DNA from: Clostridia bacterium DTU022
GTDB taxonomy: Bacteria; Bacillota; Dethiobacteria; DTU022
DNA length: 63,238 nucleotides
Direction of reading: 5' to 3'
Assembly (NCBI GenBank): GCA_001512835.1
Contig: LFRQ01000013.1
Location: 1 to 63,238 of the forward strand
The stretch's first letter is position 1; each line of letters begins with the position of its first letter. Positions 8,480-24,003 of the stretch are shown in pieces. The notes beneath the pieces are model-generated. The model ran no database searches, was not told where the DNA came from, and saw only the letters and a program-made list of their open reading frames with translations. Position numbers and translations under genes: made by a program.

Positions 8480-8505
8480 AGGAAAAGAGCGGCCGAGCCG
8501 CTCTA
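8480..8505 (-). terminator. rho-independent terminator of the DUF1540 gene (hairpin shared with the dedA end)
   Basis: AGAGCGGC-cga-GCCGCTCT hairpin at 8486-8504. On the minus strand it is followed by TTTTCCTT. Confidence 0.5.
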
Positions 8506-8667: not shown

Positions 8668-8730
8668 CTTTATCACCCCGCTTCTATGCAAAATCCTATT
8701 ATATTTTGCACCGCATCCGGAAAGATATGA

Positions 8731-10059
8731 TTAATTTCCGTTCCTTTTTTCCGGCAGCAGCCGAAAGATGAAAAGGCAGTCCAGGAGAGTGATCAGGCCG
8801 AAGGCGGCGGTATAGGCGCAGACCACCCCGGAAATGCCCCAGGCCGGCTTGGGCGTCAGGAAGCAAATTAAAACCAGGCTGAGTACGGTTCCCGCCAGGT
8901 CGTTGCTGACCGCCAGGCCCGGCCTCCCGGCCCCGTGCAATATGGCTGCCGTAGTAAACTGCAGGTACGCCAGGGGGGCCACGGGGGCAAGGAGGGCCAC
9001 CAGGCGGGCGGAGGAGAGGTCCCCATAGAAGATTTTTACCAGGATGGGAGCAGCCAGGTAGAGAACCAGGCCGGAAATTATGCCGATGCCGAGGGTTGCC
9101 CACAGGGAGAGGGAAACCAAGCGCCGCACTCGGTGGTGGAGGCGCAGGGTTAGCGCCCCGGCTATGGCCGGGACCAGGGCGGTGTTTAAGGGGATGATCA
9201 GCACCGTGGGCAAAAATAGCAAGGGCAGGGCCATGCCGGAAAACTGTCCGAAGAGGGCGGTGGCCTGGGTCGCGCTGAAACCGGCCAGCTGAAGGCGGGC
9301 GGGGATCAGCAAAGATTCCAGGGTTTGGGTGACGGCGGTGCTCAGGCGGAGGGCCAAAATGGGGAAGGCCAAGGCAAAGAGCTCCCTGAAAATTCCTGCA
9401 GGAACAGGGGTGCCGGCGCCGGCGGCCCTGGGAGGGCTGCTTCGGTAAAGGAAGGAGAAGCAGGCCATCTCCCCGGCGATGATTCCCCCCATCAGTCCCG
9501 CCACCGCCCACTCCAAGCCCCGGGAGGCCAGGAGAAAGGCCGCCGGAAGGCCCAGGAAAACCCGGATAACTTGCTCCGCCACCTGGGAGACGGCGGTAGG
9601 CGTCATATTGCTCCGCCCCTGTTGAAAACTGCGCAGAATGGAAGAAAGGGCGGCTAGGGAAAAAGCGGCCGGCATCAGGCGCAAGGCGGGGATAATTCGC
9701 TTATCGGGAAAGAGGTGGAGCGGGAGAGCCAGGACAGTCCAGAGCAGGAGGGAGACCCCTATTGCCGCCAGGATTACCAGCCGCAGGGATAGTTTTAAAA
9801 CCTTCTCCTGGCCGTAAAGATCGCCCAGGGCGTGGCGGTCGGCCACCATCTTGGTTACCGCGCCGGGCAGGCCCAGGGAGGCCGTGACTACCAGCAGGCC
9901 ATAGATGGGCAGAATCATCTGAAAAAGCCCCAATCCCTCGGCCCCAATCAGCCGGGAGAGAACCATGCGGTTGACCAGGCCGATTAGCCGGACCAGGATT
10001 CCGGCCAAAGTCAGTTGGATGGCCCCTTGCATTAACTTGCCGGAAAGTTTCAAAATCAT
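8731..10059 (-). CDS. spoVB: stage V sporulation protein B-like MOP/MurJ-family flippase
   Basis: Polytopic protein. The N-terminus GAIQLTLAGILVRLIGLVNRMVLSRLIGAEGLGLFQM matches the SpoVB/MurJ pattern. The ORF is open to 10185, and the start (10059 or 10032) is uncertain because no clear RBS is present. Confidence 0.75.
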   Translation of the reverse strand: MILKLSGKLMQGAIQLTLAGILVRLIGLVNRMVLSRLIGAEGLGLFQMILPIYGLLVVTASLGLPGAVTKMVADRHALGDLYGQEKVLKLSLRLVILAAIGVSLLLWTVLALPLHLFPDKRIIPALRLMPAAFSLAALSSILRSFQQGRSNMTPTAVSQVAEQVIRVFLGLPAAFLLASRGLEWAVAGLMGGIIAGEMACFSFLYRSSPPRAAGAGTPVPAGIFRELFALAFPILALRLSTAVTQTLESLLIPARLQLAGFSATQATALFGQFSGMALPLLFLPTVLIIPLNTALVPAIAGALTLRLHHRVRRLVSLSLWATLGIGIISGLVLYLAAPILVKIFYGDLSSARLVALLAPVAPLAYLQFTTAAILHGAGRPGLAVSNDLAGTVLSLVLICFLTPKPAWGISGVVCAYTAAFGLITLLDCLFIFRLLPEKRNGN

Positions 10060-11530: not shown

Positions 11531-12286
11531 GTGCGCTACGATCTGGAAGACAAGGTGGTTGTGGTTACCGGCGGGAGCAGGGGGCTGGGTCTGGATCTGG
11601 CCAGGAGCCTGCTGGCCCAGGGGGCCAGGGTGGTTATCTGCGGACGGAAGGAGGAGGGGCTGGAGGCGGCCCGGAAGGAGCTGGGCGAAGAGGAGAAGCT
11701 GCTGGCTGTTCCCGCCCATGTGGCCAAGGAAGAAGACGTGGAGAACCTCTTTCGCCAGGCCCGGGAACGCTTCGGCCGGGTGGATGCCCTGGTGAACAAT
11801 GTGGGGATGAACTTTTTGACCGCTTCCGTGGTGGATACGGATCCCGCCACCTGGAATAAAATTATCGATACCAACTTGACGGGAACCTTCCTATGTTCCC
11901 GGGCGGCCGCCGGAATCATGAAAGAGCAGAAAGAAGGCAAAATCGTCAACATCTCTTCCATAGCGGGGAGGAAGGCCAGTGCCGGCATGGGCATCTACGG
12001 CGTGGCCAAAGCCGGGGTGGAGATGCTGACCAAAGTCCTGGCAGCGGAACTGGCTTCCTACAACATCCAGGTTAACGCAGTGGCGCCCTGCATGATCAGG
12101 ACCAAATTCAGCCAGCCTTTCTGGTCCAACGAAGAGGTTTACAAAGAGATTGTCCAGGAGATACCCCTGGGCAGGATAGCGGAGACCAGCGACGTCATCC
12201 CCGCCATCCTTTTCCTCTGCTCCCCGGCCAGCAATTTTATAACGGGGGAAACCTTGCTGGTAGACGGGGGCAGCTGCGTTTTTTAG
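11531..12286 (+). CDS. short-chain dehydrogenase/reductase (FabG-like)
   Basis: VVVTGGSRGLG (TGxxxGxG), NNVG and YGVAKAG (YxxxK) motifs. GTG start after GGAAGGAG. Confidence 0.85.
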   Translation: MRYDLEDKVVVVTGGSRGLGLDLARSLLAQGARVVICGRKEEGLEAARKELGEEEKLLAVPAHVAKEEDVENLFRQARERFGRVDALVNNVGMNFLTASVVDTDPATWNKIIDTNLTGTFLCSRAAAGIMKEQKEGKIVNISSIAGRKASAGMGIYGVAKAGVEMLTKVLAAELASYNIQVNAVAPCMIRTKFSQPFWSNEEVYKEIVQEIPLGRIAETSDVIPAILFLCSPASNFITGETLLVDGGSCVF

Positions 12287-12314
12287 CCAAAAGCTTGCCT
12301 CCAGCGGAAAGAAC

Positions 12315-12354
12315 GGTGCGGGCCATGAAAACGACCATAGCCCGCACCTTTTAC
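12315..12354 (+). terminator. rho-independent terminator after the SDR gene
   Basis: GGTGCGGGC ... GCCCGCACC 9-bp stem followed by TTTTAC. Confidence 0.65.
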
Positions 12355-12676
12355 TTCTGCCGGGGCTCTGCGGCGCAGGTCTGGAGCAAGCCTGTATAAG
12401 CGTAATAAATACCTTTCATTTCCCGGGCAAGCGCATAATTCGCCTCGAGGGAACAAGAGACGATTGCCGGGCTCGCCATAAGCCTAATCTTGATGAAAGC
12501 TGTCATAATCGCCCCGTTTGGGCCATAAATGCAGCCTCCGGCCGCCAACTTCAGGTCAAATTATGTAAAAAGCGCTCATATACTAAAGCAAAGGATTTTT
12601 TTATTACTTGACATCGCGACGATATTTAATTAGTTTAAATAAAAGTACAATTAACGCAAAGGAGTATTTACAGGCC

Positions 12677-13279
12677 ATGGGCAACCGGCGGCAAGAAGTA
12701 ATCCTGGCAGCAATTAAAGTATTCTCCGAGAAAAACTATAACAAAGCCACTACCGCGGAAATTGCCAGGGAAGCCAGGGTTTCCGAAGGAACGATTTACA
12801 AGCACTTTGCCAGTAAGAAAGAGCTCTTTCTGGAATGCGCGCGGTATATTGAAAACCAGCTCTTTACCAGGTATAAAAAGGTGCACACGGTTTACAAAAA
12901 TCAGCACCTGGAATACTTGCGCCGGGTAGCGTTGGAATACACCTCCTTTGTCTATGAAAACCCCACCATGTCCAAGTTCCTGGCTTTTATGCTCACCAAC
13001 ACCTTCGACCCGGAGATATTGGAAGAATTAAGACAGTTTATTGATGCCAACCTCAAAACCACCGCCTACATGTTGAATGGTGCCCAGGGAACAGGGATGC
13101 TTTCCCCATCCAAGGATATCCAGGCCGCCTCCTGGTTTTACGTGGGCGGCTATTTTACCATTGTCCTCATGATGGAACTGGGAGTTGGCAAAAAGGAATG
13201 CCTGGAGATAGTGGAAAATATGCTGGCCAATACATTTCAATATCCGGCCAAAGAAGTGGAAGAACAGACCATTAAATAG
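12677..13279 (+). CDS. TetR/AcrR-family transcriptional regulator
   Basis: N-terminal HTH ILAAIKVFSEKNYNKATTAEIAREARVSEGTIYKHFASKKELF. About 200 aa. ATG after AAGGAG. Confidence 0.85.
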   Translation: MGNRRQEVILAAIKVFSEKNYNKATTAEIAREARVSEGTIYKHFASKKELFLECARYIENQLFTRYKKVHTVYKNQHLEYLRRVALEYTSFVYENPTMSKFLAFMLTNTFDPEILEELRQFIDANLKTTAYMLNGAQGTGMLSPSKDIQAASWFYVGGYFTIVLMMELGVGKKECLEIVENMLANTFQYPAKEVEEQTIK

Positions 13280-13735
13280 GGAAACCGCTTTTTTACGTCC
13301 GGCACTTTGCCGGAGGGAGAAGACTATGCCCCGAGGCAAGCAAAGCAGCGATCTTCGTTTTAGACTATTGCCCCGGCCTTAAAGCCAATTTTTTATGGCA
13401 AGGGGTCATCCCTGATTAATCTAACCTTATCAACCATGAATCCCCCGGTGCGGAAACAGCATCCAGACCGGACTCTTAAAAAGCCAATACTTTCTCCCCT
13501 TGAAAAACTTTAGAGACCTTTTCTTCTTTCAAACCCTGGAGAGGGTGGAAGAGGTGCGGATCCCCTCCACAAAATCCGCCTCTTCAGGATGGCATAATTC
13601 GCCTTTTTTCCGGCATATTAATAAAGTGATTATTCCCACTATTATAAAATATCTGAAGATTGCAAAATGATGAGCAAGATGGTGATCCTCGCCGTTTAAG
13701 TATAATTTTACAAGTATTTAGTGGGTATTTCAAGT

Positions 13736-13802
13736 TTGACTCGGCAAAAGAAAGCCTAGTAAATTATAAGAACAGGTGAGTGAGTAAACACTTACCATCA
13801 CT
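13736..13802 (+). promoter_or_regulatory. candidate promoter plus imperfect inverted-repeat operator ahead of the SCP2/DUF2148 operon
   Basis: TTGACT (13736-13741), 18 nt, TAAATT. This is followed by GTGAGTGAGTAA-acac-TTACCATCAC (13777-13802), an imperfect inverted repeat of operator-like size. Confidence 0.35.
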
Positions 13803-13910
13803 TGCGCAATTTAACCGGAAACGAGGTGAGGCCCGGAAGAAAGCACCACCGTTTACTTAAGCGCAACGTTATGGTTGGGGTTATTCCATTCCATATCAGG
13901 AGGTAAAATA

Positions 13911-14297
13911 ATGATTTTTGAATCGACAGCTAAGATGTATGACGTCCTGGGGGAGCTGTTCAATGAATTGATGAAGGACCAGCCTCTGTATCAAAAGTTC
14001 ATAGATTCGGATATTACCATCCGTTTTAACATCTCCGATCCCGATGGCTACATCTGGCTTACCAGGGACGGCAAGGTTATTTGCGGGGAGGCCGATTACA
14101 AGCCTACCATCGAGATGACTTTAAGCGGAGATACCTGCCATAAGTTCTGGCTGCAGGAGATCAAAATGCCGGTAGCTCTGGCCAAGGGGTTAATCAAGGC
14201 CAAGGGGCCGCTGCCCAAGGTATTGAATTTGCTGCCCCTGATTAAACCGGCTTATGTCATATATCCCGATATTGCCAAAAAACACGGCATCCTTTAG
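13911..14297 (+). CDS. SCP2 sterol/lipid-carrier domain protein
   Basis: 128 aa. AGGAGG RBS. Its size and the pattern (...ITIRFNISDPDGYIWL...GDTCHKFWLQEIKMPVALAKGLIKAKGP...) fit stand-alone SCP2 domains. Confidence 0.65.
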   Translation: MIFESTAKMYDVLGELFNELMKDQPLYQKFIDSDITIRFNISDPDGYIWLTRDGKVICGEADYKPTIEMTLSGDTCHKFWLQEIKMPVALAKGLIKAKGPLPKVLNLLPLIKPAYVIYPDIAKKHGIL

Positions 14298-14325
14298 GTG
14301 CTGAGCCAAGGAGGGAAGTGAGGGC

Positions 14326-14997
14326 ATGGAAAGAAGCCTAAAACAGTTTGAAGAGGATAGGGTGCAAGCGGCCCGGATTGCCGCCCGGCTGCTCCTGGCT
14401 TCGGCCACAACTTCGCCCCGGGTGGGGGGAGTCGGCGAATGCACCGTGCACATTATCGATGACAAATGCGATATCGAAGACCTCTGCCAGACCATCGAAG
14501 AGATGTCCGAGCTAAACGAGGGCTGGAAACATTTCAAGCGGGACGCCGCCATGCTCCGGGACGCTGATGCGGTCCTAATTCTAACTTCCTTGAGAAGCAA
14601 GACAGACCCCGCCGATATTAATTGCAATATGTGCGGCCACCTGACCTGCGACAACCTCAGAAACGCAGAGCGGCTGCCCCGGGAGCCCGGGATCGCTTTC
14701 CCCGGCCCCTTATGCATTTTCCGGGCCAACAATATCGCCTACGCTGTAGACGGGATCATCTCCCTGGCCAAGTACATCGGCATCGACTACGGCGTCTTCT
14801 GGTCGGCTGGCGCGGCGGCCATGCGCATGAAGCTGGTTCCCAAGGATACCGGCTTTGCCCTGGCCGTGGCCATATCCGTCACCGAGAAGAGCCCCTTCAG
14901 AGACATACCCAAGCGCTACCACGAGATCAACCAGCGGACCATGCAGGACCGCATCATCAGCCGGCTCTGGCCGCAATTCCGCTCCATCTACAGTTAG
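14326..14997 (+). CDS. DUF2148 (COG4739) ferredoxin-domain protein, paralog 1
   Basis: 223 aa. Cys cluster CNMCGHLTC (CxxCxxxxC) plus the downstream Cys in GPLCIFRANN. Paralogous to the next ORF. Confidence 0.7.
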   Translation: MERSLKQFEEDRVQAARIAARLLLASATTSPRVGGVGECTVHIIDDKCDIEDLCQTIEEMSELNEGWKHFKRDAAMLRDADAVLILTSLRSKTDPADINCNMCGHLTCDNLRNAERLPREPGIAFPGPLCIFRANNIAYAVDGIISLAKYIGIDYGVFWSAGAAAMRMKLVPKDTGFALAVAISVTEKSPFRDIPKRYHEINQRTMQDRIISRLWPQFRSIYS

Positions 14998-15025
14998 TGC
15001 CAGGCACGTCAACTTGGTCAACTTT
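14997..15025 (+). repeat. partial third copy of the GTGCCWGGCAC-GTCAACTTNGTCAACTT element
   Basis: GTGCCAGGCACGTCAACTTGGTCAACTTT matches 20943-20971 at 27 of 29 positions. It starts on the last base of the DUF2148-1 stop codon. Confidence 0.8.
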
Positions 15026-15058
15026 TTTGTGTCGACTACTTTTTAAGGAGGTAGAGCA

Positions 15059-15712
15059 ATGGCCGTTCGCGAGATGGATGAACTGGTCCAGAACGGCCTG
15101 GACCGAGCGCTGGAAATTATGGCCCTGGCCGCCCATAACAGCTTCCGCTTCGAGTCGAGGAATACCATTAAAATGCTGGTGGCGGACAAGGAAGAGATGG
15201 AGGCCATAGCCGAATTTTGCTTCTCCCTGGCCGACATGTCCCCCCTGTCTGCCCGGGACGGCCGGCATGTCATGGAACTAATCAAGGAGCCCTGCGCCCT
15301 GCTCCTCATCGGGGACAGCCGGAAGTCCCCCTACAACTACAATTGCGGCGCCTGCGGCTTTCGAACCTGCGCCGAGCTGAACCGGGCGGAAGAGACGGAT
15401 TCGCTCCTGGCCATCGGACCCAGCTGCCAGTTTAAAAATATCAACATCAACATCGCCGCCAACGCCGCGGCGTACATGGCCTGGCGCCTGGGCCTCTACT
15501 GCCGGGTTTTCAGCACCCTGGCCTTTGCCGCCAAGGCCCTGGGCATCATTGATACTGACCTGGTGGTCTGCGTATCGGTGAGCGCCGCCAAGAAGGACCC
15601 CTATTTTGACCGGCATCAGTTCTGGACCGATGAGTACTGGGATGAAGTCTTTGAAAACGAGTTCCCAACTTTCACCCGGGGCTTCATCGGCGCCGTGGAG
15701 AAGGAAGATTAG
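15059..15712 (+). CDS. DUF2148 (COG4739) ferredoxin-domain protein, paralog 2
   Basis: 217 aa. AAGGAGG RBS. CGACGFRTC (CxxCxxxxC) plus GPSCQFKNIN, collinear with paralog 1. Confidence 0.7.
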   Translation: MAVREMDELVQNGLDRALEIMALAAHNSFRFESRNTIKMLVADKEEMEAIAEFCFSLADMSPLSARDGRHVMELIKEPCALLLIGDSRKSPYNYNCGACGFRTCAELNRAEETDSLLAIGPSCQFKNININIAANAAAYMAWRLGLYCRVFSTLAFAAKALGIIDTDLVVCVSVSAAKKDPYFDRHQFWTDEYWDEVFENEFPTFTRGFIGAVEKED

Positions 15713-15739
15713 CCATCATGCTTGGAAGGTGGTATAAAC

Positions 15740-17362
15740 ATGAGTTATAAAGCCCATTTGAACCAGGTAATCGCCTCCCACCTGGTGGAACTCAAGGCCG
15801 ACGAGGTTCCCGACCAGCCCATATTCATCTTCGAAAAGGGAGAGCACGGGGAAGATATCCTTACCTACAAGGACCTGCACGAGAATTCCAACAAGATCGC
15901 CCGCCTTTTCCTGGAGCGGGGCATCGGCAAGGGGGATCATTACGCCATCTACATGCGCAACCACCCCGAGTTTCTCTACTCCCTCCTGGCCGGGATGGTG
16001 CTGGGAGCCATCGCCGTCCCCGTAGACCCGCGCTACCGGGGCGAGCGTTTAAAATACATTCTTCACAACTGCAAGGCCAAAGCGGTAATCGCTTCCGGAG
16101 AATGCCTGGAAGCTCTGGAGGAGGTGCTGGGGGAACTGCCCGAGATCAAGCTGGTCTCCATCGCCTATCGTCCCGAGCAGAACATTCCCTTCAGCAGCAA
16201 GTACCATGCCTTGAACGAGACCCTGGAGCAGGACACCTGGGCCGCCGTGGAGCAGCAGATCATGGATGTCCGGCATCCCATGCAGGTAATCTACACCTCC
16301 GGGACCACGGGAGATCCCAAGGGGGTAACTATCCGGAACAACCGGACCGGCCTCTACACCATCCTGACCCGCATCGTCTGGCAGTATAAGAAGAGCGATA
16401 TATTGTACACCGGCCTTTCCCTCTCCCACGGGAACGCCCAGGCGGTAACCCTCTTTCCGGCCCTGTACCTGGGCTGCCAGGCCGTTTTCAGCCCCCGCTT
16501 TACCAAGAGCCGCATCTGGGATATCTGCCGTAAATACGGCTGCACCTCCTTCTCGCTTTTGGGAGGGATGATGGCGGCCATCTACAACGAGCCGGAGAAG
16601 CCCGATGATGCCGACAATCCCGTCCAAGTGGTGATTAGCGCCGGCACTCCCCGGGCCATCTGGGAAAGCTTTGAGAAGCGCTTCAACGTGCAAATCCTGG
16701 AATGGTACGGCTCCGTGGAGGGAGGCTTCGCCTACAAGCCCATCGGCAAGGGGCCCATCGGCTCATTCGGGAAGGGCCTTCCCGGGGTTATGGAGCTGAA
16801 AGTGGTGGACGAAAATGACAACGAGGTGCCGCCGGGAGTTACCGGGGAACTAATCTGCCGCATGATTAAGGGCGATACGCGAGTGGATTACCTGGGACTC
16901 CCCGAAGCCTCCAAGGAGAAGACCCGGGGCGGCTGGCTACGCACCGGGGACATGGTCCACCGCGATGAAAACGGTTGGTTATTCTTCGACTACCGCAAGG
17001 GCTCCGAGCTGAGGAGAGCCGGCGACTTTATACAGCCCGATTTTGTGGAGAAAGTTATCGGCGAACATCCCGACGTCAGCGAAGTCTGCGTCTACGGCAT
17101 ACCCGCCGCCTCGGGCGCTCCCGGGGAGAGCGACCTGGTGGCGGCCATCTCTCCCTTTGAGGGGAAGACCATCGATCCCGTCTCCATCTACCGGCGCTGC
17201 CAGGAGGAACTGGCCCGCAACTTTATCCCCTCCTACCTGCAGATTGTCGACGAGATCCCGAAAACCATCTCCGAAAAACCCTTGGATCGCCTTCTGCGCG
17301 AGCAGTTTAACCGGGGAGAAGGGGAGATCTACCGTTACGAGGACTACATCAACGAGTTGTAA
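15740..17362 (+). CDS. AMP-forming acyl-CoA synthetase/ligase
   Basis: IYTSGTTGDPKG AMP-binding motif, GELICR, and the C-terminal lysine context ISEKPLDR. About 540 aa. Confidence 0.9.
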   Translation: MSYKAHLNQVIASHLVELKADEVPDQPIFIFEKGEHGEDILTYKDLHENSNKIARLFLERGIGKGDHYAIYMRNHPEFLYSLLAGMVLGAIAVPVDPRYRGERLKYILHNCKAKAVIASGECLEALEEVLGELPEIKLVSIAYRPEQNIPFSSKYHALNETLEQDTWAAVEQQIMDVRHPMQVIYTSGTTGDPKGVTIRNNRTGLYTILTRIVWQYKKSDILYTGLSLSHGNAQAVTLFPALYLGCQAVFSPRFTKSRIWDICRKYGCTSFSLLGGMMAAIYNEPEKPDDADNPVQVVISAGTPRAIWESFEKRFNVQILEWYGSVEGGFAYKPIGKGPIGSFGKGLPGVMELKVVDENDNEVPPGVTGELICRMIKGDTRVDYLGLPEASKEKTRGGWLRTGDMVHRDENGWLFFDYRKGSELRRAGDFIQPDFVEKVIGEHPDVSEVCVYGIPAASGAPGESDLVAAISPFEGKTIDPVSIYRRCQEELARNFIPSYLQIVDEIPKTISEKPLDRLLREQFNRGEGEIYRYEDYINEL

Positions 17363-17386
17363 CTTCTTGGAAAGGAGTGCCGTGTT

Positions 17387-18610
17387 ATGAGTTACCTGGA
17401 ATTAAACCTGGATCTAACCGACGAGCAGCTCATGCTGCGGGACAATATACGCAAGTTTGCCCTGGAGGTAATGAGGCCTACCGCCATGAAGCTGGACCAG
17501 ATGACTCCCGAGGAAGTCATCGCCCCGGACTCTATCTTTTGGGACTGTATGAAACAGGCTTACAAGCTGGGCCTGCATAAGATCCTGATTCCCGAGGAGT
17601 ACGGGGGGCTCGGTCTGTCGCCTATCGAAGTACACATGGTAGTCGAAGAGATGGGCTACGGCAGCAGCGATATCGCCATCGCCCTAGGGGTCAGCTGCTT
17701 CCCGGCTTTTCTGGCCTCCATGGTCCCTACTGATGAGTTGATCAATAACATTATCGTCCCCTACTGCGAAGACACCGAAGCGAAGATCATGGGCTGCTGG
17801 GCGATTACGGAGCCGGATCACGGTTCCGACAGCCTGGCTCCCGGCACCGCCCAGTTTAAAGACCCCAACATTTATGGACAATGCCGAGCCCGTCTGGAGG
17901 GTGACGAGTGGGTAATCAACGGGCAGAAAGCGGCCTGGGTCTCCATGGGGACGGCGGCCACCCACGCCATGGTCTACCTGACCATCGATCCCTCCATGGG
18001 CTTTGCCGGCGGCGGCATCTGCCTGGTTCCCCTGGACCTTCCCGGCGTCTCCCGGGGGAAGCCCCTGAACAAGCTGGGGCAGAGGGCCCTGAACCAGGGG
18101 GAGATCTACTTCGACAATGTCCGGGTGCCCTACGAATACATGCTTGTGGACCAGGAGAGCTACGAAGCTATTCTCGACATCACCCTGGCTACGGCCAATG
18201 CCTATGTCGCCGCCGTATTTACCGGGGTGGCCCGCTCCGCTTACGAGGAGGCGCTGAACTATGCCCGGCAGCGGGTGCAGGGGGGGAAGCCCTTGGTCGA
18301 GCACCAGCACGTGCGCTACAAGCTTTTCCACATGTTTAAAACGGTGGAAGCCTGCCGGGCCCTTTCCCGGGCCGCTATGGTCTACAACCTTAGCACCAGT
18401 CCGCCGGCAACGGAGTACTCCATCGCTTCAAAAGTTTTCTGCACCGACGCCGCTTTCCAGGTGGCCCACGAGGCCATCCAGATCTTCGGCGGCAACGGCC
18501 TGGCCAAGGAGTACGCCATCGAAAAGATCTTCCGCGATGCCCGGGCCGGGATGATCGAGGACGGCTCCAACGACAGCCTGGCCCTGTTTGCCAGCGAACG
18601 GCTCATTTAG
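17387..18610 (+). CDS. acyl-CoA dehydrogenase
   Basis: 407 aa. ACAD pattern: WAITEPDHGSD, the middle beta-domain, and QIFGGNGLAKEYAIEKIFRDAR near the C-terminus. Confidence 0.9.
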   Translation: MSYLELNLDLTDEQLMLRDNIRKFALEVMRPTAMKLDQMTPEEVIAPDSIFWDCMKQAYKLGLHKILIPEEYGGLGLSPIEVHMVVEEMGYGSSDIAIALGVSCFPAFLASMVPTDELINNIIVPYCEDTEAKIMGCWAITEPDHGSDSLAPGTAQFKDPNIYGQCRARLEGDEWVINGQKAAWVSMGTAATHAMVYLTIDPSMGFAGGGICLVPLDLPGVSRGKPLNKLGQRALNQGEIYFDNVRVPYEYMLVDQESYEAILDITLATANAYVAAVFTGVARSAYEEALNYARQRVQGGKPLVEHQHVRYKLFHMFKTVEACRALSRAAMVYNLSTSPPATEYSIASKVFCTDAAFQVAHEAIQIFGGNGLAKEYAIEKIFRDARAGMIEDGSNDSLALFASERLI

Positions 18611-18705
18611 AGCGGAAGGCGGGGAGATAGACCCGGTTTGCTGGTATAAGGCGGAAGACATGGAAGAGATCCCGTTTTTAAAAGGAGTTATCCAAGGAGG
18701 AATCC

Positions 18706-19941
18706 ATGAGCGACGTTTACGTTATCGGTGTCGGCATGACCAAGTTCGGCAAGTTCCTGGAGGGATCCGTAAAGGCCTTGGCCGCAGAGGCCGTCGGCGC
18801 CGTGTTAAAAGACGCCGGAGTGAAGAAGAATGATATCCAGGCGGCCTATGTTTCCAATTCCTTCTGGGGTATGTTCAGCGAGCAGCACTCCATCCGGGGC
18901 CAGGTGCTCCTGCACCCTTTGGGCTTCGAAGAAATCCCCATCATCAACACGGAAAATGCCTGTGCCGGCGCCTCCACGGCGCTGCACCTGGCCTGGACGG
19001 CGGTGAAAGCCGGGCTTTACGATTGCGTGCTGGCCCTGGGAGTAGAGAAGATCAGCCACCAGGATAAGATGCTCTCCTTTCGCTCCTACGCCACCTGCCT
19101 GGACGTGGAAGAGTTCCCCCAAAAAATAGGGCAGATGATGGAGGAACTGAGCAAGCTGGAGCTGGAAATCCCTGAGGAGTCCCAACCCGGCCAGGGGCGC
19201 AGCATCTTCATGGACCTGTATGCCATGGGGGCCCGCTGGCACATGGCCCGCTACGGCTCCACCCAGCGGCAGCTGGCGGCCATCGCCGCCAAGAACCACG
19301 AACACGGCTGCCTTAACCCGTACGCCCAGATCCGGATTAAAATGACTCTAGAAGAGGTGCTCAACGACCGCCCCGTGGCCTATCCCTTTACCAGGGCCAT
19401 GTGCTCTCCCGTGGGCGACGGCGCGGCGGCGGCCATCATCTGCTCCGCCGATTACCTAAAGCACTTGAAAGAGGCCCGGCCGGTAAGAATTGCCGCCTCG
19501 GTGTTGGGCACGGGCCGGGCCCGGGATCTGGACGGCGAGCATATCGGAAAAACGGTGGCCGCCAAGGCCTACCAGTCCGCTTCCGTGGGGCCGGAAGACA
19601 TCGACCTGGCGGAACTCCACGATGCCACCGCCTTCGGAGAACTGCTCCAGTCGGAAGTAATGGGTTTCTGCCCGGAAGGGGAGGGAGGGCTCCTGGCGGA
19701 ATCGGGAGCCACCCGGCTGGGAGGGCGGATCCCCATCAACACCTCCGGGGGCCTGGAGTGCCGCGGGCATCCCATCGGCGCCTCCGGCCTGGCCCAGGTC
19801 TACGAGGTGGTGACCCAACTGCGGGGCGAGGCGGGGGAACGGCAAGTGGAGGGGGCCCGCTGGGCCTTGACGGAAAACGGCGGCGGCTTCCTGGGAGTGG
19901 AAGAGGCGGTGGCGGCAGTGCATATATTTGCCCGGCAGTAG
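18706..19941 (+). CDS. SCP-x/PaaJ-type thiolase-like protein
   Basis: 411 aa. VIGVGMTKFGK, active-site Cys context NTENACAGAS, and C-terminal NTSGGLECRGHPIGASG. Confidence 0.85.
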   Translation: MSDVYVIGVGMTKFGKFLEGSVKALAAEAVGAVLKDAGVKKNDIQAAYVSNSFWGMFSEQHSIRGQVLLHPLGFEEIPIINTENACAGASTALHLAWTAVKAGLYDCVLALGVEKISHQDKMLSFRSYATCLDVEEFPQKIGQMMEELSKLELEIPEESQPGQGRSIFMDLYAMGARWHMARYGSTQRQLAAIAAKNHEHGCLNPYAQIRIKMTLEEVLNDRPVAYPFTRAMCSPVGDGAAAAIICSADYLKHLKEARPVRIAASVLGTGRARDLDGEHIGKTVAAKAYQSASVGPEDIDLAELHDATAFGELLQSEVMGFCPEGEGGLLAESGATRLGGRIPINTSGGLECRGHPIGASGLAQVYEVVTQLRGEAGERQVEGARWALTENGGGFLGVEEAVAAVHIFARQ

Positions 19942-19985
19942 TCAGAATATTCAATCTAGTTGACAAAGTTGACGTGCCAGGCACC
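19941..19985 (+). repeat. left arm of 45-bp inverted repeat
   Basis: GTCAGAATATTCAATCTAGTTGACAAAGTTGACGTGCCAGGCACC. The reverse complement of 20942-20986 matches at 43 of 45 positions. It begins on the last base of the thiolase stop codon. Confidence 0.9.
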
Positions 19986-19992
19986 AAAGAAA

Positions 19993-20024
19993 AGGGGGGC
20001 TCTGCGAAGAGCCCCTCTTTTTAT
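19993..20024 (+). terminator. rho-independent terminator
   Basis: GGGGCTCT-GCGA-AGAGCCCC hairpin (extendable by wobble pairs) followed by a T run. It lies just inside the left inverted-repeat arm. Confidence 0.75.
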
Positions 20025-20085
20025 ATTCTTCTGTTCCTGTACCCGGCAAAAAGTGTTATCATTATCGGTGGGGGAGGGATGGAAA

Positions 20086-20688
20086 ATGTGCGGACGCTTC
20101 CGCATTAACACGGAGCTGGGTTCCCTGAGCCGGCGCTTCCTGGTGGAGGAGTCAGAGATTGACTCATACAAGGGCGGAGAGGTGGCTCCCTCGGACCTGG
20201 CACCCGTGATCGTAAACCAGGAGGGGACCCGGAAGCTGGTCCTGATGCGCTGGGGATTTACCCATCCCGGGGGAAAAGGGCTGATTATTAACGCCCGGAG
20301 CGAAACCGTGGATATAAAGCCCATGTTCAGGAGGGCCTTTCAGAGCAAACGCTGCCTGATTCCCGCCAACGGATTTTTTGAATGGAAACAGGAGGGGCGG
20401 GCCAAAATTAAACATGAAATTATATTCAATGAAGGGCAGCTTTTTGCCATGGCCGGCCTCTATGACTTTTTTGTGGGGGAAGACGGCAGGCGTTATCCCG
20501 CCTTTACGATTATTACCACCCCGGCCAACAAACTGGTAGCCTCCCTGCACCACCGCATGCCGGCAATTCTTCTCCCCGACGGGGAGCAGATCTGGCTGGA
20601 GGGCGTAGCCGGGCAGGCAAGGCTGTTGAAGGACATCCTGCAGCCCTACCCCGATGGGGAAAAGACGATGGCGATCCTCCGCCGCTGA
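20086..20688 (+). CDS. SOS-response-associated peptidase (SRAP; YedK/HMCES family)
   Basis: Starts MCGRF (catalytic Cys2). Also MRWGF, INARSET and ANGFFEW motifs. GGGGGAGGG RBS. About 200 aa. Confidence 0.9.
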   Translation: MCGRFRINTELGSLSRRFLVEESEIDSYKGGEVAPSDLAPVIVNQEGTRKLVLMRWGFTHPGGKGLIINARSETVDIKPMFRRAFQSKRCLIPANGFFEWKQEGRAKIKHEIIFNEGQLFAMAGLYDFFVGEDGRRYPAFTIITTPANKLVASLHHRMPAILLPDGEQIWLEGVAGQARLLKDILQPYPDGEKTMAILRR

Positions 20689-20736
20689 CCCGCCCATGGA
20701 TCTTCTCGGCCTTATCCCGTTTAAGGAGGTGAAACC

Positions 20737-20931
20737 ATGCCCACCATTTTCTTCTACGGTCCCGAACTGGACCCGGATAAGAAGCGGACCCTGATTAGCG
20801 AATTTACCGCCGCGGCCAGCAAGGCCACCGGCCTCAGCCCCTCCGCCTTCGTGGTCTACCTGCGCACATCGACCCCCGAAGACGTGGGCGTCGGGGGAGA
20901 ACTGCTGGCAGACCGCCAGAAAAAACAGTAA
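20737..20931 (+). CDS. 4-oxalocrotonate tautomerase-family protein
   Basis: 64 aa. Met-Pro N-terminus (MPTIFFYGP) and a beta-alpha-beta size typical of the family. GGAGG RBS. Confidence 0.8.
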   Translation: MPTIFFYGPELDPDKKRTLISEFTAAASKATGLSPSAFVVYLRTSTPEDVGVGGELLADRQKKQ

Positions 20932-20941
20932 AGTAAATTTC

Positions 20942-20986
20942 GGTGCCTGGCACGTCAACTTTGTCAACTTTATTGAATATTCTGAC
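20942..20986 (-). repeat. right arm of 45-bp inverted repeat
   Basis: GGTGCCTGGCACGTCAACTTTGTCAACTTTATTGAATATTCTGAC. It starts 10 nt after the tautomerase stop. Confidence 0.9.
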
Positions 20987-21036
20987 ATATTGTACCCCGG
21001 CCGGGAAGGGAGGCCGGGGCTTGCTGTTTTAAAGAT

Positions 21037-21087
21037 TTGACATGCAGGGGCAGCCGTGCTAAGATAATAGTGCACTGTTATATAACA
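21037..21087 (+). promoter_or_regulatory. promoter and palindromic operator of the GntR/ABC operon
   Basis: TTGACA (21037-21042), 17 nt, TAAGAT (21060-21065). A perfect 12-bp palindrome TGTTATATAACA (21076-21087) follows, flanked by ACTGT...ACAGT. Confidence 0.6.
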
Positions 21088-21105
21088 TTAATACAGTTGC
21101 TGGGG

Positions 21106-21498
21106 GTGGAGGGGCTGCGCTTCTTTATTAATTCCCGTTCGGCGGTTCCCATTTACCACCAACTTGTAGAACAGATCAAAAACGCCGTGGCCAGCGGTAT
21201 GCTGGCTCCGGGGCAGCAGCTGCCCTCGGTGCGGGAGCTGGCCGGGGAGTTGGCCATTAATCCCAACACCGTCATCCGGGCGTACAGCATCCTGGAAAGC
21301 GAAGGCATCATTTACCGCCGCCAAGGCAGCGGGACTTTCGTGGCCAAAAATAGCGTGCCCTCCGGAGACTATTCCCGGCTGGAGGAAAAGATTCAGGATT
21401 TGCTGGTGGAGGCCTACCACCTGAAAGTCGGGGAAGAGGAATTGCGGAAGCTCTTTGAAGGAGCCCTGAACAAATGGAAAAAAAGCGAGGTGGAATAA
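21106..21498 (+). CDS. GntR-family (YtrA-like) transcriptional regulator
   Basis: Winged-helix motif PIYHQLVEQIKNAVASGMLAPGQQLPSVRELAGELAINPNTVIRAYSILESEGIIYRRQGSGTFV with a short C-terminus. The start is approximate (GTG 21106; ORF open from 21037). Confidence 0.8.
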   Translation: MEGLRFFINSRSAVPIYHQLVEQIKNAVASGMLAPGQQLPSVRELAGELAINPNTVIRAYSILESEGIIYRRQGSGTFVAKNSVPSGDYSRLEEKIQDLLVEAYHLKVGEEELRKLFEGALNKWKKSEVE

Positions 21499-22397
21499 CG
21501 TTGGAGTATGCCATCCAAACGGAAAGGCTGAGCAAAAGTTTCGGCGGACGCCGGGTTCTGCGCGATATCAACCTGCAGGTTCCCAAGGGTTCTATCTTCG
21601 GTTTTATCGGACCCAACGGAGCCGGGAAGACAACCACCATTCGCCTGCTGCTGGGCTTGATTAAGCCCGATGCCGGCAGCAGCAGCGTCCTGGGTTTGGA
21701 CTCCTTCCAGCAGAGCATTGAAATTCGAAAACGGGTGGGCTACCTGAGCGAGCATAACCAATTCTACCCCTGGATGCGGGTGGAGGAGTTGATCAAGTTC
21801 AACGCCGGCTTTTTCCCCACCTGGGATCACGGCCGGGCCGAACAACTGCTGCAGATGTTTGACCTTCATCCCGGGGCCCGGATCAAGGAGCTCTCCAAGG
21901 GGATGCGCACCCAGCTGGGTCTGGTCATCTCCCTCGCCCACAACCCGGAGCTGCTGATCCTTGACGAGCCCACCAGCGGGCTGGACCCGGTCTGGCGAAG
22001 GCAATTTCTGCAAATAATGGCCCGGGAGGCCGCCTCCAGGGAGACCACCGTATTTTTCTCTTCCCATATCCTCTCCGACGTGGAGCGGGTTGCCGACTGG
22101 CTGGCCATTATCGTGGAAGGCCGCATCAAGACGGTACGCCCCATGGACGACATTAAATACAACGAACGAAAGATCAGGGTTGTTTTTCAGGGAGAGGCGC
22201 CGGAATCGCTGCTGGGCACGGCGGGGATCAAGTCCATCGAACGCCAGGGCAGCGGCTACCTGATCACCGTGGAAGACAATTTCGATGAGATCTATAAAGC
22301 CCTGAAAAATACGCCCCATTTTGCCCTGGAGGTGGTGGAGCAGGACCTGGAAAGCATCTTTTTGGATTACGCCGGAAAGGAGGATATGGATGCCTAG
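21474..22397 (+). CDS. ABC transporter ATP-binding protein
   Basis: Walker A GPNGAGKTT, signature LSKGMRTQ, Walker B LLILDEPTSGLD. Overlaps the GntR stop. Confidence 0.9.
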   Translation: MEKKRGGITLEYAIQTERLSKSFGGRRVLRDINLQVPKGSIFGFIGPNGAGKTTTIRLLLGLIKPDAGSSSVLGLDSFQQSIEIRKRVGYLSEHNQFYPWMRVEELIKFNAGFFPTWDHGRAEQLLQMFDLHPGARIKELSKGMRTQLGLVISLAHNPELLILDEPTSGLDPVWRRQFLQIMAREAASRETTVFFSSHILSDVERVADWLAIIVEGRIKTVRPMDDIKYNERKIRVVFQGEAPESLLGTAGIKSIERQGSGYLITVEDNFDEIYKALKNTPHFALEVVEQDLESIFLDYAGKEDMDA

Positions 22398-23157
22398 CCT
22401 TAACTTGTTGCGGAAAGAGCTGCGGGAGCAGCGCTGGATATTCCTTTTTGCCCTCCTGTTGATCACGGCCATGGGGATTTTCAACGCTTGGAGCTACAAG
22501 TGGATGCCCCTCCTGGAGGATATGGCCGAAGGATTCCTGGGCTCCCAGTTCGGAGCGGAACTTTCCAGGATGCTGGCGGATTATAACTACTATCTCTGGA
22601 GCCAGTGGCAGCCGAAAAACTTGCTCCAGATGGGGACAATTCTGGCCCTTATTTTAGCCGCACCGGCCATCGCCGGAGAGGTCAACCGGAATACCATCGA
22701 ATTTTTAACCAGCCGCCCCATCGGCCGGAAAAAGATCCTGGCCACCAAGGCGGCCGCGGGCATCCTGGTGTTGACCCTGGTCATCTGGATTTCTACCCTG
22801 CTCACCCTGGCTACGGGTCATTTTCTGAAGCCGGAACTGCAATGGGGACGCCTGCTGGCCTCAACGGTCCTGGTTAACGTCGGCTTAATCGCCGTGTACG
22901 CCATCGGCATAGTCTTCTCCAACCTGGCCAACGACAGCATTAAAGCCGGCGCCCTGGCTGCCGGCGCTCTGTTTCTCTGGTCGGGATTCGGCCTGCACCA
23001 GTCCACCCGGGTTCTATCTCCTTTCTGGCATATGAAAGGGCTGTACTGGTTCCTGGAGGTGGAGCCCTTCCCGTGGCTCTCCCTGATTGGGCTGGCCTTG
23101 CTGGCTGCCCTGTCCCTGCTTCTGGCGGGATATCTTTTTGTGAAAAAGGAATTTTAA
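22390..23157 (+). CDS. ABC-2 type permease
   Basis: About 255 aa with six hydrophobic segments. ATG overlaps the ATPase stop (ATGCCTAG). Confidence 0.7.
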   Translation: MPSLNLLRKELREQRWIFLFALLLITAMGIFNAWSYKWMPLLEDMAEGFLGSQFGAELSRMLADYNYYLWSQWQPKNLLQMGTILALILAAPAIAGEVNRNTIEFLTSRPIGRKKILATKAAAGILVLTLVIWISTLLTLATGHFLKPELQWGRLLASTVLVNVGLIAVYAIGIVFSNLANDSIKAGALAAGALFLWSGFGLHQSTRVLSPFWHMKGLYWFLEVEPFPWLSLIGLALLAALSLLLAGYLFVKKEF

Positions 23158-23182
23158 ATCACTTGCAAAGGAGGAAGAAGAG

Positions 23183-23485
23183 ATGTTATTGGCCACTTCC
23201 GATCTGCGCACCGATTACCAGGTTCTGGGGATGGTTCAGGGGTCCAAGGTTAGAGCCGTTCACCTGGGCAAGGATATCGTAGCTAGCCTGCGCCGGCTGT
23301 TGGGGGGAGAGGTAAAAGAGTATGCCAGGATGATCGAAGAGGCCCGCCAAGCCGCCCTGCAGGAAATGATCAAAAGAGCCGAAGAACTGGGTGCCAACGC
23401 CGTTATCGGTGTCCGCTATGCCTCGTCTACCGTGGGCACCGGCATCGCCGAAATAATCGCCTACGGAACGGCAGTAAAGATTTAA
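23183..23485 (+). CDS. YbjQ/UPF0145-family protein
   Basis: 100 aa. Contains GANAVIGVRYASS and IIAYGTAVKI, typical of YbjQ. Confidence 0.8.
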   Translation: MLLATSDLRTDYQVLGMVQGSKVRAVHLGKDIVASLRRLLGGEVKEYARMIEEARQAALQEMIKRAEELGANAVIGVRYASSTVGTGIAEIIAYGTAVKI

Positions 23486-23522
23486 AATATTTAAGCTTAC
23501 TTAAATGCAGCAAAGAAAATTT

Positions 23523-23548
23523 AACCGCCCTGGAAAGGGCGGTTTTTT
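23523..23548 (+). terminator. rho-independent terminator (convergent genes)
   Basis: AACCGCCC-tggaaa-GGGCGGTT followed by TTTT. Confidence 0.75.
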
Positions 23549-24003
23549 CACTGTTCCAACTCATTTTGCAGCTGAATCGACTTAATGCAGTATTTAAATA
23601 CGCCTCCCGGGGCGTCCACCTCAATATGGTCGCCCATCTTGCGCAACAGCAGCGACTTGCCCATGGGGGAGAGGCAGGAGACGTCGCCCTCTCTTACGGT
23701 TCCATGCAGAGGGCTGGCAATACGGTAATTCAAGGTCTCCCCGGTGGCAAGATCCTCCAACTCCACCTCGCAGCCGATGGTCACAAAAGGGACCGCCCGG
23801 TCTTGTTTTTTGGATTTGCGGGCATTGGCCACAAGGCTTTCGATCAAATTGATATACTGTTCAATAAGTTCTTTAAATTCCTCCCGTTCTGGCGACGGAT
23901 CGGGAAAGTACTGGTCAACAATCTTATTTTTCCCCTCTTCCATTTCCACCAGGTGTTTAACCAGGGCTTCAAAAGTGGAATTGGACAAGGTAACCTTATC
24001 CAT
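23548..24003 (-). CDS. GreA/GreB C-terminal-domain family protein
   Basis: 151 aa. GGAGGG RBS. N-terminal helical part followed by a GreA-like C-domain (VTIGCEVELEDLATGETLNYRIASP...LSPMGKSLLLRKMGDHIEVDAPGG). Confidence 0.7.
   Translation of the reverse strand: MDKVTLSNSTFEALVKHLVEMEEGKNKIVDQYFPDPSPEREEFKELIEQYINLIESLVANARKSKKQDRAVPFVTIGCEVELEDLATGETLNYRIASPLHGTVREGDVSCLSPMGKSLLLRKMGDHIEVDAPGGVFKYCIKSIQLQNELEQ

Follow-up and report, generated by a model that had tools for sequence, protein, structure and literature searches.

Inverted arms around an SRAP-tautomerase segment of an uncultured Bacillota are very probably two members of a dispersed REP-like repeat family

REP sequences and their RAYT transposases, as described in E. 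coli, Pseudomonas and Stenotrophomonas, are to our knowledge known almost entirely from Proteobacteria. On the whole, these systems share with the repeat reported here a short, high-copy intergenic unit lying mostly between convergent or co-directional genes, repeat ends on or over stop codons (often TAG), a division into subfamilies, the role of assembly and rearrangement breakpoints, and a single-copy Y1/HUH transposase of the RAYT class whose gene adjoins the repeat. For the REPs of E. coli, effects on translation termination or mRNA decay have been proposed. The same placement at gene ends has been described for REPs (PMC3733652). Di Nocera et al. (2013) also describe TIRtrons, whose tyrosine transposases (TIRYT) have inverted repeats on both sides, and these repeats occur besides as dispersed families of moderate abundance (PMC3733652). 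Inverted repeats surround the TIRYT gene as they do the RAYT homologues described below, its 3' repeat lies over the stop codon as at the RAYT gene of the present family, and in both cases single copies, dimers and groups of copies are spread over the genome. MITEs (RUP, bcr1, Correia/NEMIS, ERIC) are likewise small, non-coding and dispersed, often adjacent to genes and co-transcribed with them, and able to close ORFs or supply signals. In integron cassettes (ORF plus attC), too, a repeat starts on or just past the stop codon of the preceding ORF, gene-plus-repeat runs keep one orientation, and there is a two-module presence/absence such as we see below between two loci (L117 and L094). Finally, invertons (hin, fim, Bacteroides-type) also have inverted repeats that bracket about 1 kb.

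The window analysed here is the whole stretch of 63,238 nucleotides from Clostridia bacterium DTU022. A preliminary description of it had reported 45-bp near-perfect inverted repeats around an SRAP-tautomerase cassette, and had proposed that the two arms could define one unit, namely a mobile cassette, an invertible segment or looped operators. Our analysis shows instead a dispersed multi-copy repeat, an undescribed family of the REP/RAYT type, and leaves a dedicated mobile or invertible cassette unsupported. In all probability, the two arms are independent members of this REP-like family with a cognate single-copy RAYT elsewhere in the genome, and the "cassette" is most likely ordinary chromosome between two repeats. 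The features of the region are the following.

12608-13279, upstream of the arms: TetR gene (Pfam).
14996-15038, minus strand: third copy of the repeat, short form, reading AAAAAAGTTGACCAAGTTGAC-GTGCCTGGCAC-T on the minus strand; nhmmer 44.4 bits.
18706-19941, plus strand: thiolase-like gene (Pfam), last gene of an acyl-CoA operon.
19941-19985, plus strand: left arm, a copy of the dispersed repeat in its medium (45-bp) form; nhmmer 59.2 bits.
19989-20022, bidirectional: intrinsic-terminator-like hairpin closing the thiolase operon.
20034-20062, plus strand: inferred SRAP promoter, read by eye as TTCCTG, a 17-nt spacer and the extended -10 TGtTATCAT.
20086-20688, plus strand: SRAP (YedK-like) gene, 200 aa, MCGRF N-terminus; Pfam PF02586, 7e-51.
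20737-20931, plus strand: 4-oxalocrotonate-tautomerase-family gene, 64 aa; Pfam PF01361, 7.8e-9.
20942-20986, minus strand: right arm, medium form with spacer AAA; nhmmer 59.5 bits.
20995-21030, plus strand: likely terminator hairpin of the SRAP-tautomerase transcript, CCCCGGCC...GGCCGGGG then CTTGCTGTTTT, from our own scan.

As to structure, the preliminary description holds well. The repeat search of the window recovers a single long inverted pair (n=1), 19941-19988 and 20939-20986, in which 45 of 48 nt match (94% complementary) at a distance of 950 nt; inside the 45-mer the identity is 43 of 45 as claimed, with the only differences in the 3-nt spacer (CTA vs AAA). The proposed build of an AT-rich outer part, GTTGAC-AAA-GTTGAC and an 11-bp palindrome GTGCCWGGCAC was reread in the sequence, the left arm being ordered as outer module TCAGAATATTCAAT, spacer CTA, GTTGACAAAGTTGAC, palindrome GTGCCAGGCAC and then C. 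The 26-nt core GTTGACAAAGTTGACGTGCCAGGCAC occurs three times in the window, while 0.00 occurrences are expected by chance. The left arm does start on the last base of the thiolase stop codon (the G of TAG), so that its outer end overlaps this codon, and its core end lies 3 nt before the terminator-like hairpin. The calls of the SRAP, tautomerase, thiolase and GntR genes, the last downstream of the cassette, are all matched in Pfam, and the tautomerase has Pro directly after the initiator Met. We also agree that the arms look less like terminators than like the multi-site sequences by which proteins recognise mobile DNA; a promoter and terminator scan of the arms gives neither a sigma-70 promoter nor a terminator.

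The RNA contigs further show how the two arms are placed relative to transcription. The thiolase mRNA includes the left arm at its end, a contig reaching 19984, and depth falls from about 24 to below 1 across the hairpin at 19989-20022. Contigs of three runs begin at 20079-20081, near the SRAP start; the promoter read upstream of it was not flagged by the consensus promoter scan. The core end of the right arm is 10 nt past the tautomerase stop codon, and its outer end is followed 9 nt on by a hairpin with a T-run, which is missing from the consensus terminator listing, and contig depth is 0 from 21068 onward.

The third copy, which the preliminary description missed, brings all three window copies within 6 kb. 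It sits between two DUF2148 genes, the TAG stop codon of the first one overlapping its core end, and at the centre of its palindrome it carries the base that marks the short subfamily. In the relatives L118, L119 and L121, the spacer between these genes is without the copy, and the stop codon is at the identical position. Relatives keep the acyl-CoA operon, with about 75% amino-acid identity, and lack all three window copies. In the comparison of orthologous loci proposed earlier, they thus show the operon without arms; synteny is lost right after the thiolase, whose relatives are only about 75% identical. A MutS scan for closer relatives gave at most 48% identity among the matches listed.

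Outside the window, the unit can be written as TCWGAATWTTCAAT-nnA-GTTGACAAAGTTGAC-GTGCCWGGCAC-Y, and it is found at no fewer than 53 further sites beside unrelated housekeeping genes, so the 45-mer, whose copy count had been set as a check, is far from unique. We count 3 copies in the window, 5 loci in the MAG JPNG_maxbin.054 and 64 metagenome stretches; nhmmer over the collected stretches gives 111 matches in 71 unique contexts. With a density of about one copy per 22-24 kb, the genome would hold on the order of 100 copies. Since the copies outside the window were collected by an exact-core pattern, the invariance of the core is partly a matter of ascertainment; a looser genome-wide pattern gave mostly chance matches. 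The copies fall into three length classes (short, medium and long), each with diagnostic substitutions, and units measure 30-85 bp. The long form is a tandem direct pair, tandem being the usual arrangement of close pairs. Within this family, 43 nt of the left arm are identical to the copies L004 and L067 and 44 nt of the right arm to L063 and L087, so that each arm is no closer to its partner than to copies at unrelated loci.

These gene contexts bear directly on the idea of paired operators, by which the TetR encoded upstream or the GntR encoded downstream would act as a local regulator, bind both arms and loop out the cassette. Palindromes with direct repeats are typical of operators, regulator genes of both kinds flank the region, and there are three copies so close together. 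Nevertheless, identical 44-45-mers stand beside dozens of unrelated genes, the sites follow stop codons and precede terminators instead of standing at promoters, and the orthologous operon of the relatives does without them. Because the gene contexts of the copies are unrelated, local operator sites are excluded, and we regard this reading as effectively refuted, with next to no probability left for it.

Compared with the classical REP, a 20-40-nt hairpin with a GTAG (or CGTC) tag, which is not what we find here, the unit is built in another way: two tandem 9-bp units, AAAGTTGAC, plus an 11-bp palindrome and an optional AT-rich module. Only the 11-bp GTGCCWGGCAC is palindromic and the predicted hairpin of the outer module is not preserved by natural variants (z-scores are unremarkable), hence this is not a canonical REP hairpin; an RNA or ssDNA hairpin in the 45-mer was rejected likewise, its stems not being maintained. 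CGTC does follow GTGCCWGGCAC but belongs to a GTCAAC unit, and TAG often adjoins copies at a variable offset. Unlike REPINs, which are inverted REP doublets tens of bases apart, the doublets here are tandem pairs, and the window pair is 950 nt apart.

Concerning their placement, the copies are intergenic or on ORF ends, with 19 convergent, 22 unidirectional and 5 divergent contexts, and the unidirectional ones have an orientation bias of 17 to 5. For about half of the copies, the GGCACY end falls between -2 and +10 nt of a stop codon. Counting ORFs of 100 aa or more, 22 of 53 core ends have one that terminates at -2 to +8 nt, compared with 5 of 51 outer ends, and the stop is TAG in 13 of these 22 as against a background of 32%. 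The right arm, in the usual orientation of the family, and the third copy follow this gene-end rule, whereas the left arm is in the minority opposite orientation. Terminator-like sites past the outer end are found for 13 of 51 copies, hardly above the 8-10 in the other three combinations of flank and strand, and a general rule of stop codon, element and terminator was therefore rejected.

Such a distribution could mean that the family is retained chiefly because it serves the host at gene ends, whether still mobile or not, for example as a 3'-UTR element for translation termination or mRNA decay or as a binding site of a chromosomal protein. The tight placement of the core end on stop codons and the orientation bias speak for it, as do RNA contigs that carry copies joined to upstream gene ends and a core that is constant while the linker diverges between strains. 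On the other hand, neither a conserved RNA hairpin nor covariation is seen, Rfam gives no match, relatives do without copies at the corresponding sites, core invariance is biased by the way of collection, and between roughly a quarter and a third of the copies are away from any ORF end. Weighing both sides, we consider this explanation rather unlikely.

It is necessary to ask whether the repeat-rich contigs belong to the genome of the window, an assignment made by coverage and composition and not by physical link. Logan contigs break at both arms, where the summed contig depth is about 15-100 times the single-copy depth. The tetranucleotide distance to the window is 0.010-0.029 for repeat-bearing loci, much as for the window's own chunks (0.010-0.018), with one outlier (L064, 0.051) that is probably a chance hit; for the 135 other loci it is at least 0.026 with a median of 0.057. 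The RAYT locus is present in all 8 runs that hold the window, and its depth relative to the window is 0.85-1.04 in 7 of the 8, across a 10-fold range of depth. By sequencing depth and tetranucleotide composition, the repeat-bearing contigs are those of the window's own species.

The transposase was found by annotating the genes between inverted repeat pairs; paralogue clustering gave no multi-copy transposase.

L066:7268-8164: RAYT gene, product of 295-298 aa; Pfam Y1_Tnp 6.7e-13, NCBIfam NF047646 89.6 bits (cut-off 80).

This single-copy gene lies between folD and the OLE RNA gene, in the ole operon. Its HUH motif and the Tyr of RYIHQNP are invariant in 7 homologues, and a C-terminal extension of about 150 aa gives a weak HTH signal; this extension, the ole operon and the uncultured Bacillota host set the system apart from the described REP/RAYT systems. 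The TGA of the gene falls within a repeat copy (8158-8203). In the window's species a clear copy is seen only at this 3' end, the next, inverted one lying past folD and FTCD_C, 2.7 kb upstream. Inverted repeats with a GTGCCWGGCAC-like core are present within about 50 nt on both flanks of four homologues (43-50% identity): they are built on GCACGTGCCTGGCACGTGC in L238, on CGGTGCCAGGCACCG in L242 and on AGTGTCAGGCACT in L236, while in L240 tandem AAATAAGT units are followed by GTGACAGGCACC. The sister families in L238 and L242 have 31-nt perfect palindromes. The TIR sequences described for TIRtrons (e.g. the GGGGWSAS motif; PMC3733652) are unrelated, and in the present case the core is common to four diverged homologues.

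Since inverted copies stand on either side of RAYT genes in this clade, the SRAP-tautomerase segment might be thought a non-autonomous mobile cassette, a cargo-carrying analogue of REPINs or TIRtrons moved in trans by the RAYT. A natural 3-kb two-gene segment between two copies does occur in one population while another lacks it (L117 vs L094), and an exotic origin of the SRAP is possible because it has no close homologue, none above about 51% identity in our search. Yet the arms are as close to unrelated copies as to each other, and their cores face inward, opposite to the outward cores of the RAYT-flanking pairs. There is no second SRAP or tautomerase in about 590 kb of the same genome, and the segment keeps a single location and arrangement in all assemblies, with no target duplication at its outer ends and a GC content like that of the flanks, free of compositional anomaly. 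As for the 3-kb indel, the copies at its ends are in direct orientation and simple recombination would account for it. At other loci, adjacent copies, whether direct, inward or outward, have ordinary metabolic genes between them, which counts against the cassette idea, and no SRAP or tautomerase homologue is near any other copy, so the SRAP was rejected as a partner of the repeat. A mobile cassette is in our judgement very improbable.

A segment that flips against the thiolase operon by homologous or site-specific exchange at the 45-bp arms fares hardly better. The high identity in inverted orientation is a possible substrate, and copies of the family act as natural rearrangement breakpoints. 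Against this, the segment is present in one orientation at nine loci of independent conspecific assemblies (9 of 9 at contig level, a low-frequency inversion being below such resolution), no inverted homologous pair is seen among all locus pairs, and 45 bp is short for RecA-dependent exchange. The absence of a recombinase from the cassette, noted earlier, extends to transposases, invertases and integrases in the 72 kb of the window plus 9 kb beyond. Flipping would have no obvious switch function, since the cassette has its own promoter and terminator. Inversion at this locus is highly unlikely, and the locus differs from described invertons in that its repeats have many further copies, an invertase gene is absent nearby, the assemblies give a single orientation and no promoter is switched.

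Regarding the remaining known elements, MITEs differ in that the 30-85-bp units here are much shorter and show no terminal inverted repeats and no recurrent target-site duplication at their boundaries. An attC identity was rejected, for GTTGAC misfits GTTRRRY, a conserved bulged hairpin is absent and the 72 kb hold no tyrosine recombinase; unlike integron cassettes, the copies have no R/L box hairpin, no IntI and no array, and stand by dispersed housekeeping genes. By eye we also rejected a sigma-54 site in the arms (the GG-N10-GC spacing fails), a CtsR site (period 9, not 10), and CodY and LexA/Cheo boxes; GAAC-N4-GTTC does not occur in the window. The earlier statement that no described family fits is borne out: the Rfam scan of 12000-24000 gives sub-threshold chance matches only, a literature text search for the motifs found nothing relevant, and the repeat has no match among plasmids, phages and viral contigs.

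Taking the arms as members of a REP-like family, the RAYT would mobilise, or once have mobilised, the repeats through single-stranded DNA; its catalytic domain would act at the palindromic core, and the C-terminal helix-turn-helix perhaps reads the tandem 9-bp units. Copies gather at the 3' ends of genes, where their palindromic GGCACY end typically lies on the stop codon or a few bases past it. SRAP and tautomerase would be ordinary genes with their own promoter and terminator that came to lie by chance between copies of opposite orientation, and the arms at this locus would be passive 3'-UTR passengers. The subfamilies, the identical copies and the absence in relatives point indirectly to such mobilisation; with no filled/empty site pair for a single copy among the loci compared within the species, and no target-site duplication, mobility is inferred and not shown.

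That the inverted pair makes the SRAP-tautomerase genes a RAYT-mobilisable or invertible cargo, the repeats delimiting gene modules gained, lost or flipped, is again highly doubtful; if true, it would be a REP-based cassette system in Bacillota, with the two-gene indel of L117 and L094 as its first example. What the preliminary description took for a cassette is rather two neighbouring copies of a genome-wide repeat, which should not be annotated as a transposon, an inverton or an operator pair. An uncultured and widespread Bacillota of anaerobic digesters has a REP-like family of unusual modular build, which hugs stop codons as the classical REPs do. Short-read assemblies break up at the repeats, and the 3-kb indel has its breakpoints at them, which is relevant to binning and pangenome work on the organism. 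For the RAYT clade, the repeats offer a concrete candidate recognition sequence, whose core the homologues keep in their own flanking repeats.

A repeat search of the window gives one long inverted pair, 19941-19988 and 20939-20986, with 48 nt that are 94% complementary and 950 nt between, and the 45-mer arms within it differ solely in the 3-nt spacer (CTA versus AAA). The arms were thus correctly read in the preliminary description, which also had the left one start on the last base of the thiolase stop codon; indeed the thiolase ORF ends at 19941, and the left arm therefore begins on the G of its TAG. The thiolase, SRAP (7e-51, MCGRF start), tautomerase and GntR genes named there are all confirmed by Pfam. 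A third, shorter copy was overlooked, and the 26-nt core GTTGACAAAGTTGACGTGCCAGGCAC, with 0.00 occurrences expected by chance in the window, is found three times. The features are:

14996-15038, minus strand: third copy, a short form with the short-form diagnostic base, between two DUF2148 genes and overlapping the upstream TAG
19941-19985, plus strand: left arm
19989-20022: bidirectional terminator-like hairpin
20942-20986, minus strand: right arm

The third copy takes up most of the spacer between DUF2148a and DUF2148b, which is 61 nt in the window versus 34-46 nt in relatives.

The same unit is dispersed well beyond this locus. Searching one genome per species for the exact pattern gives five sites, each of them in the MAG Bacillota bacterium JPNG_maxbin.054. 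Among metagenomes 64 stretches are found, and a single 117-kb contig has as many as seven copies or more; a profile made from the first eight copies has 111 hits in 71 unique contexts. The neighbouring genes are unrelated, including aldo-keto reductase, MFS and ZIP transporters, CooC, GFO oxidoreductase, acyl-CoA synthetases, HtrA, GH3, FolD, GlmM and DinB. Three forms are seen, each with distinct diagnostic bases, as would be expected of copied sequences and not of independent origin:

Short form: AAAAAGTTGACAAAGTTGAC-GTGCCTGGCAC, central T
Medium form: 45 bp, central A, the form of both window arms
Long form: about 80 bp, a variant first unit AAAGTTGACAAAGTTGCCGGGCCAGGCAYC, a linker and a second unit

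The right arm equals two copies elsewhere (L063 and L087) over 44 identical nt and the left arm two others (L004 and L067) over 43, therefore the arms are no more alike than any two family members, and the idea of a private pair belonging to a special cassette is not borne out, the unit being present in all those contexts. Old copies seem to decay fast, with many C-to-T or G-to-A changes in and around CCWGG: a decayed first unit (L112 3197-3223, L114 9590-9616) differs at 5 of 27 positions though the two contigs are 98.6% identical, and an intact medium copy 130 nt away shows no difference between them.

Three lines of evidence, namely contig depth, the depth of the locus joining folD and a RAYT (REP-associated tyrosine transposase) gene, and tetranucleotide composition, tie the other copies to the window's own genome. 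Logan contigs from four metagenomes, placed on 19300-21600, end inside both arms, and in each run the arms are matched by about 100 contigs, whose depths equal the window depth of that run. The folD-RAYT locus is found at ≥99% identity in 8 of 8 runs tested, with depths, versus the window, of 8-9.5 versus 9.4-12.5, 81.7 versus 95, 18 versus 17, 19.9 versus 20, 12.7 versus 13.3, 14.9 versus 17.6, 19.1 versus 21.4 and 38.9 versus 24.9, run by run. The tetranucleotide distance to the window is 0.010-0.029 for repeat-bearing loci, except for the outlier L064 (0.051), probably a chance hit; it is 0.010-0.018 between 12-kb window pieces and the rest of the window, and at least 0.026 (median 0.057) for 135 of 135 other loci. 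Copy densities are similar, with 3 in 72 kb (the window and 9 kb beyond) and 15 in 330 kb of one assembly, suggesting that a genome has about one hundred copies. In all Logan assemblies read (runs X5, X7, X9, X11, X12, X14, X17 and X20), the segment between the arms is a separate 1008-1010-nt contig (19958-20967) cut inside both arms, and k=31 assemblies of this organism are systematically broken up by the family. The window's own contigs are absent from every genome and metagenome collection scan, and in the species-representative collection no match to its thiolase exceeds 76% identity and none to its MutS exceeds 48%. Repeat-bearing contigs apparently from this species (JPNG_maxbin.054 and JGI contigs) are present there, yet the collections seem either to lack the window region itself or to mask it.

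Judged against crude ORF calls, the copies between genes are 19 convergent, 22 co-directional (17 in one orientation, 5 in the opposite) and 5 divergent. For 27 of 53 unique copies, an opposite-strand ORF ends at -2 to +10 nt from the GGCACY (core) end, in the arrangement gene stop, GGTGCCWGGCAC GTCAAC TTT GTCAAC..., and in 8 of the 27 the TAG overlaps the element. ORFs of at least 100 aa end at the core end in 22/53 copies versus 5/51 at the outer end, with TAG enriched among those stops (13/22 versus a background of 32%). An ORF entering the unit is closed within 30-40 nt in two frames, the tails VPGTSTLST-stop and CLARQLCQLD-stop being encoded by the unit in its usual orientation; several ORFs (L117 6501-8267, L062, L055, L110 and others) seem to owe their stop codon and the 9-10 codons before it to the repeat. 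In the window, the right arm (10 nt past the tautomerase stop) and the third copy obey the rule of core end at stop, and the left arm, which has the rarer orientation, meets the thiolase TAG with its outer end. Lying at gene ends in this way, the repeat may serve a host function there, as is debated for classical REPs; the window arms are probably passive 3'-UTR passengers. All three window sites are free of copies in relatives that share the operon at about 75% amino-acid identity. DUF2148a stops at the same place in these relatives as in the window, so the third copy sits exactly on a pre-existing stop. The distribution is that described for REPs, which lie mostly between convergent or unidirectional ORFs, no more than 20 bp from 3' ends, with termini often supplying TAG (PMC3733652). 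In addition, the first unit of long forms (L002 1856-1961, L099 4300-4380, L061 2569-2653, L114 9590-9770 and others) gives TTGACA, with -10-like hexamers (TATCAT, TATAAT, CATAAT, GATAAT, TATATA) 16-19 nt past it towards the GGCACC end, and 10-60 nt past several copies there is an RBS and then a gene on the same strand; judged by eye only, the arrangement is a possible outward promoter.

The RAYT gene came to light when genes lying between inverted neighbouring copies were annotated. In L066, a locus of the same species as the window, positions 7268-8164 encode a 298-aa protein with matches to Pfam Y1_Tnp (6.7e-13) and to NF047646, the NCBIfam equivalog for REP-associated tyrosine transposase (89.6 bits, cut-off 80); across seven homologues, neither the HUH motif (H63-Y64-H65) nor the Tyr of RYIHQNP varies. 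A medium-form copy (8158-8203) has the TGA of this gene within its outer module, and the next copy, a short form 2.7 kb upstream, has the opposite orientation; judged by depth and composition, the window's genome has a RAYT with a copy on its stop codon. Four homologues (43-50% identity) in other genomes have inverted repeats on the same core at both sides:

L238: ATAACTGCACGTGCCTGGCACGTGCAGTTAT
L242: ATAACTAACGGTGCCAGGCACCGTTAGTTAT
L236: AACTAGAAGTGTCAGGCACTTCTAGTT
L240: two or three tandem AAATAAGT units, then TAGTGACAGGCACC

Comparison of these flanks shows that the core is conserved around diverged RAYT genes. The 3' repeat overlaps the stop codon in L238, L236 and L242, likewise in L066, and the nearest 3' core in L240 is about 18 nt beyond the stop; the L240 build of direct repeats and core mirrors that of the window family. 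A RAYT gene with flanking inverted repeats is the REPtron/TIRtron arrangement (PMC3733652). Around RAYT genes the cores point away from the gene, whereas in the window pair they point inward. The L066 gene is located inside a classic OLE RNA locus, xseA-xseB-ispA-FTCD_C-folD-RAYT-OLE RNA-193-aa oapA-like ORF-dxs-tlyA-like, with the OLE RNA at 8247-8819 (RF01071, 493 bits). The folD-RAYT-OLE order recurs with homologues only 49-50% identical (also L238, L242 and L243-L246), and a bioinformatic survey of OLE-associated proteins mentions no transposase (PMC11332333).

Nothing marks the SRAP-tautomerase segment as a unit, and a specially bracketed cassette is not supported. Its GC content is that of the flanks, the outer ends of the arms have no target duplication, neither the window nor the 9 kb beyond it encodes a transposase, integrase or invertase, and no SRAP or tautomerase homologue is found beside any other copy. 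Recombination between the inverted arms may rarely invert the segment; judged from assembled contigs, gene order and orientation are identical in all conspecific contigs read (24 for each of two look-ups, and nine loci with DNA). In RNA contigs, the thiolase message passes through the left arm to 19984 and depth drops sharply at the terminator, the SRAP RNA is weak and begins at 20079-20081, and no RNA contig extends beyond 21067; therefore the main transcripts each hold only one arm, and no long-range RNA duplex between the arms is expected. For the SRAP protein (20086-20688), a search of 5.8 billion clusters gives no homologue with more than about 51% identity. LexA is encoded at 45071-45745, and no GAAC-N4-GTTC box is found anywhere in the 63-kb window; SOS control of SRAP, if any, would need another operator.

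Family copies do mark rearrangement breakpoints, in the following within-species indel:

L117 6453-9602 versus L094 12102-12181: extra segment of about 3 kb in L117 between two direct long-form copies, single copy in L094

These contigs are 98.6-99.5% identical, the extra segment has an AMP-binding enzyme, an alpha/beta hydrolase and a short-form copy, and this is the sole structural difference found among all homologous locus pairs. The L094 copy has the linker subtype GAATTTTCTGCCAA, unlike both L117 copies, so either it did not arise by simple recombination between those two, or linkers change much more quickly than the flanks, which are 99% identical.

On the whole, the arms belong to a multi-copy, subfamily-structured repeat associated with gene ends. 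The family behaves like a REP/RAYT or TIRtron system. Its RAYT would carry the unit to new sites, or would once have done so, by way of single-stranded intermediates; the catalytic domain would act at the palindromic core, and the weakly HTH-like C-terminal domain (best Pfam hit Sigma70_r4, E 0.008, below threshold) may read the tandem 9-mers. Copy number, placement and RAYT agree with such systems, but the 20-40-nt hairpin with GTAG of REPs is missing, and the doublets are tandem, unlike REPIN doublets. The earlier statement that these ends fit no described element family holds, with no prior description found in Rfam, the literature, plasmids or phages. To our knowledge, REP/RAYT-type systems are little documented in Bacillota, and the present repeats would represent a new family of this type, with an unusual modular build, from Bacillota.
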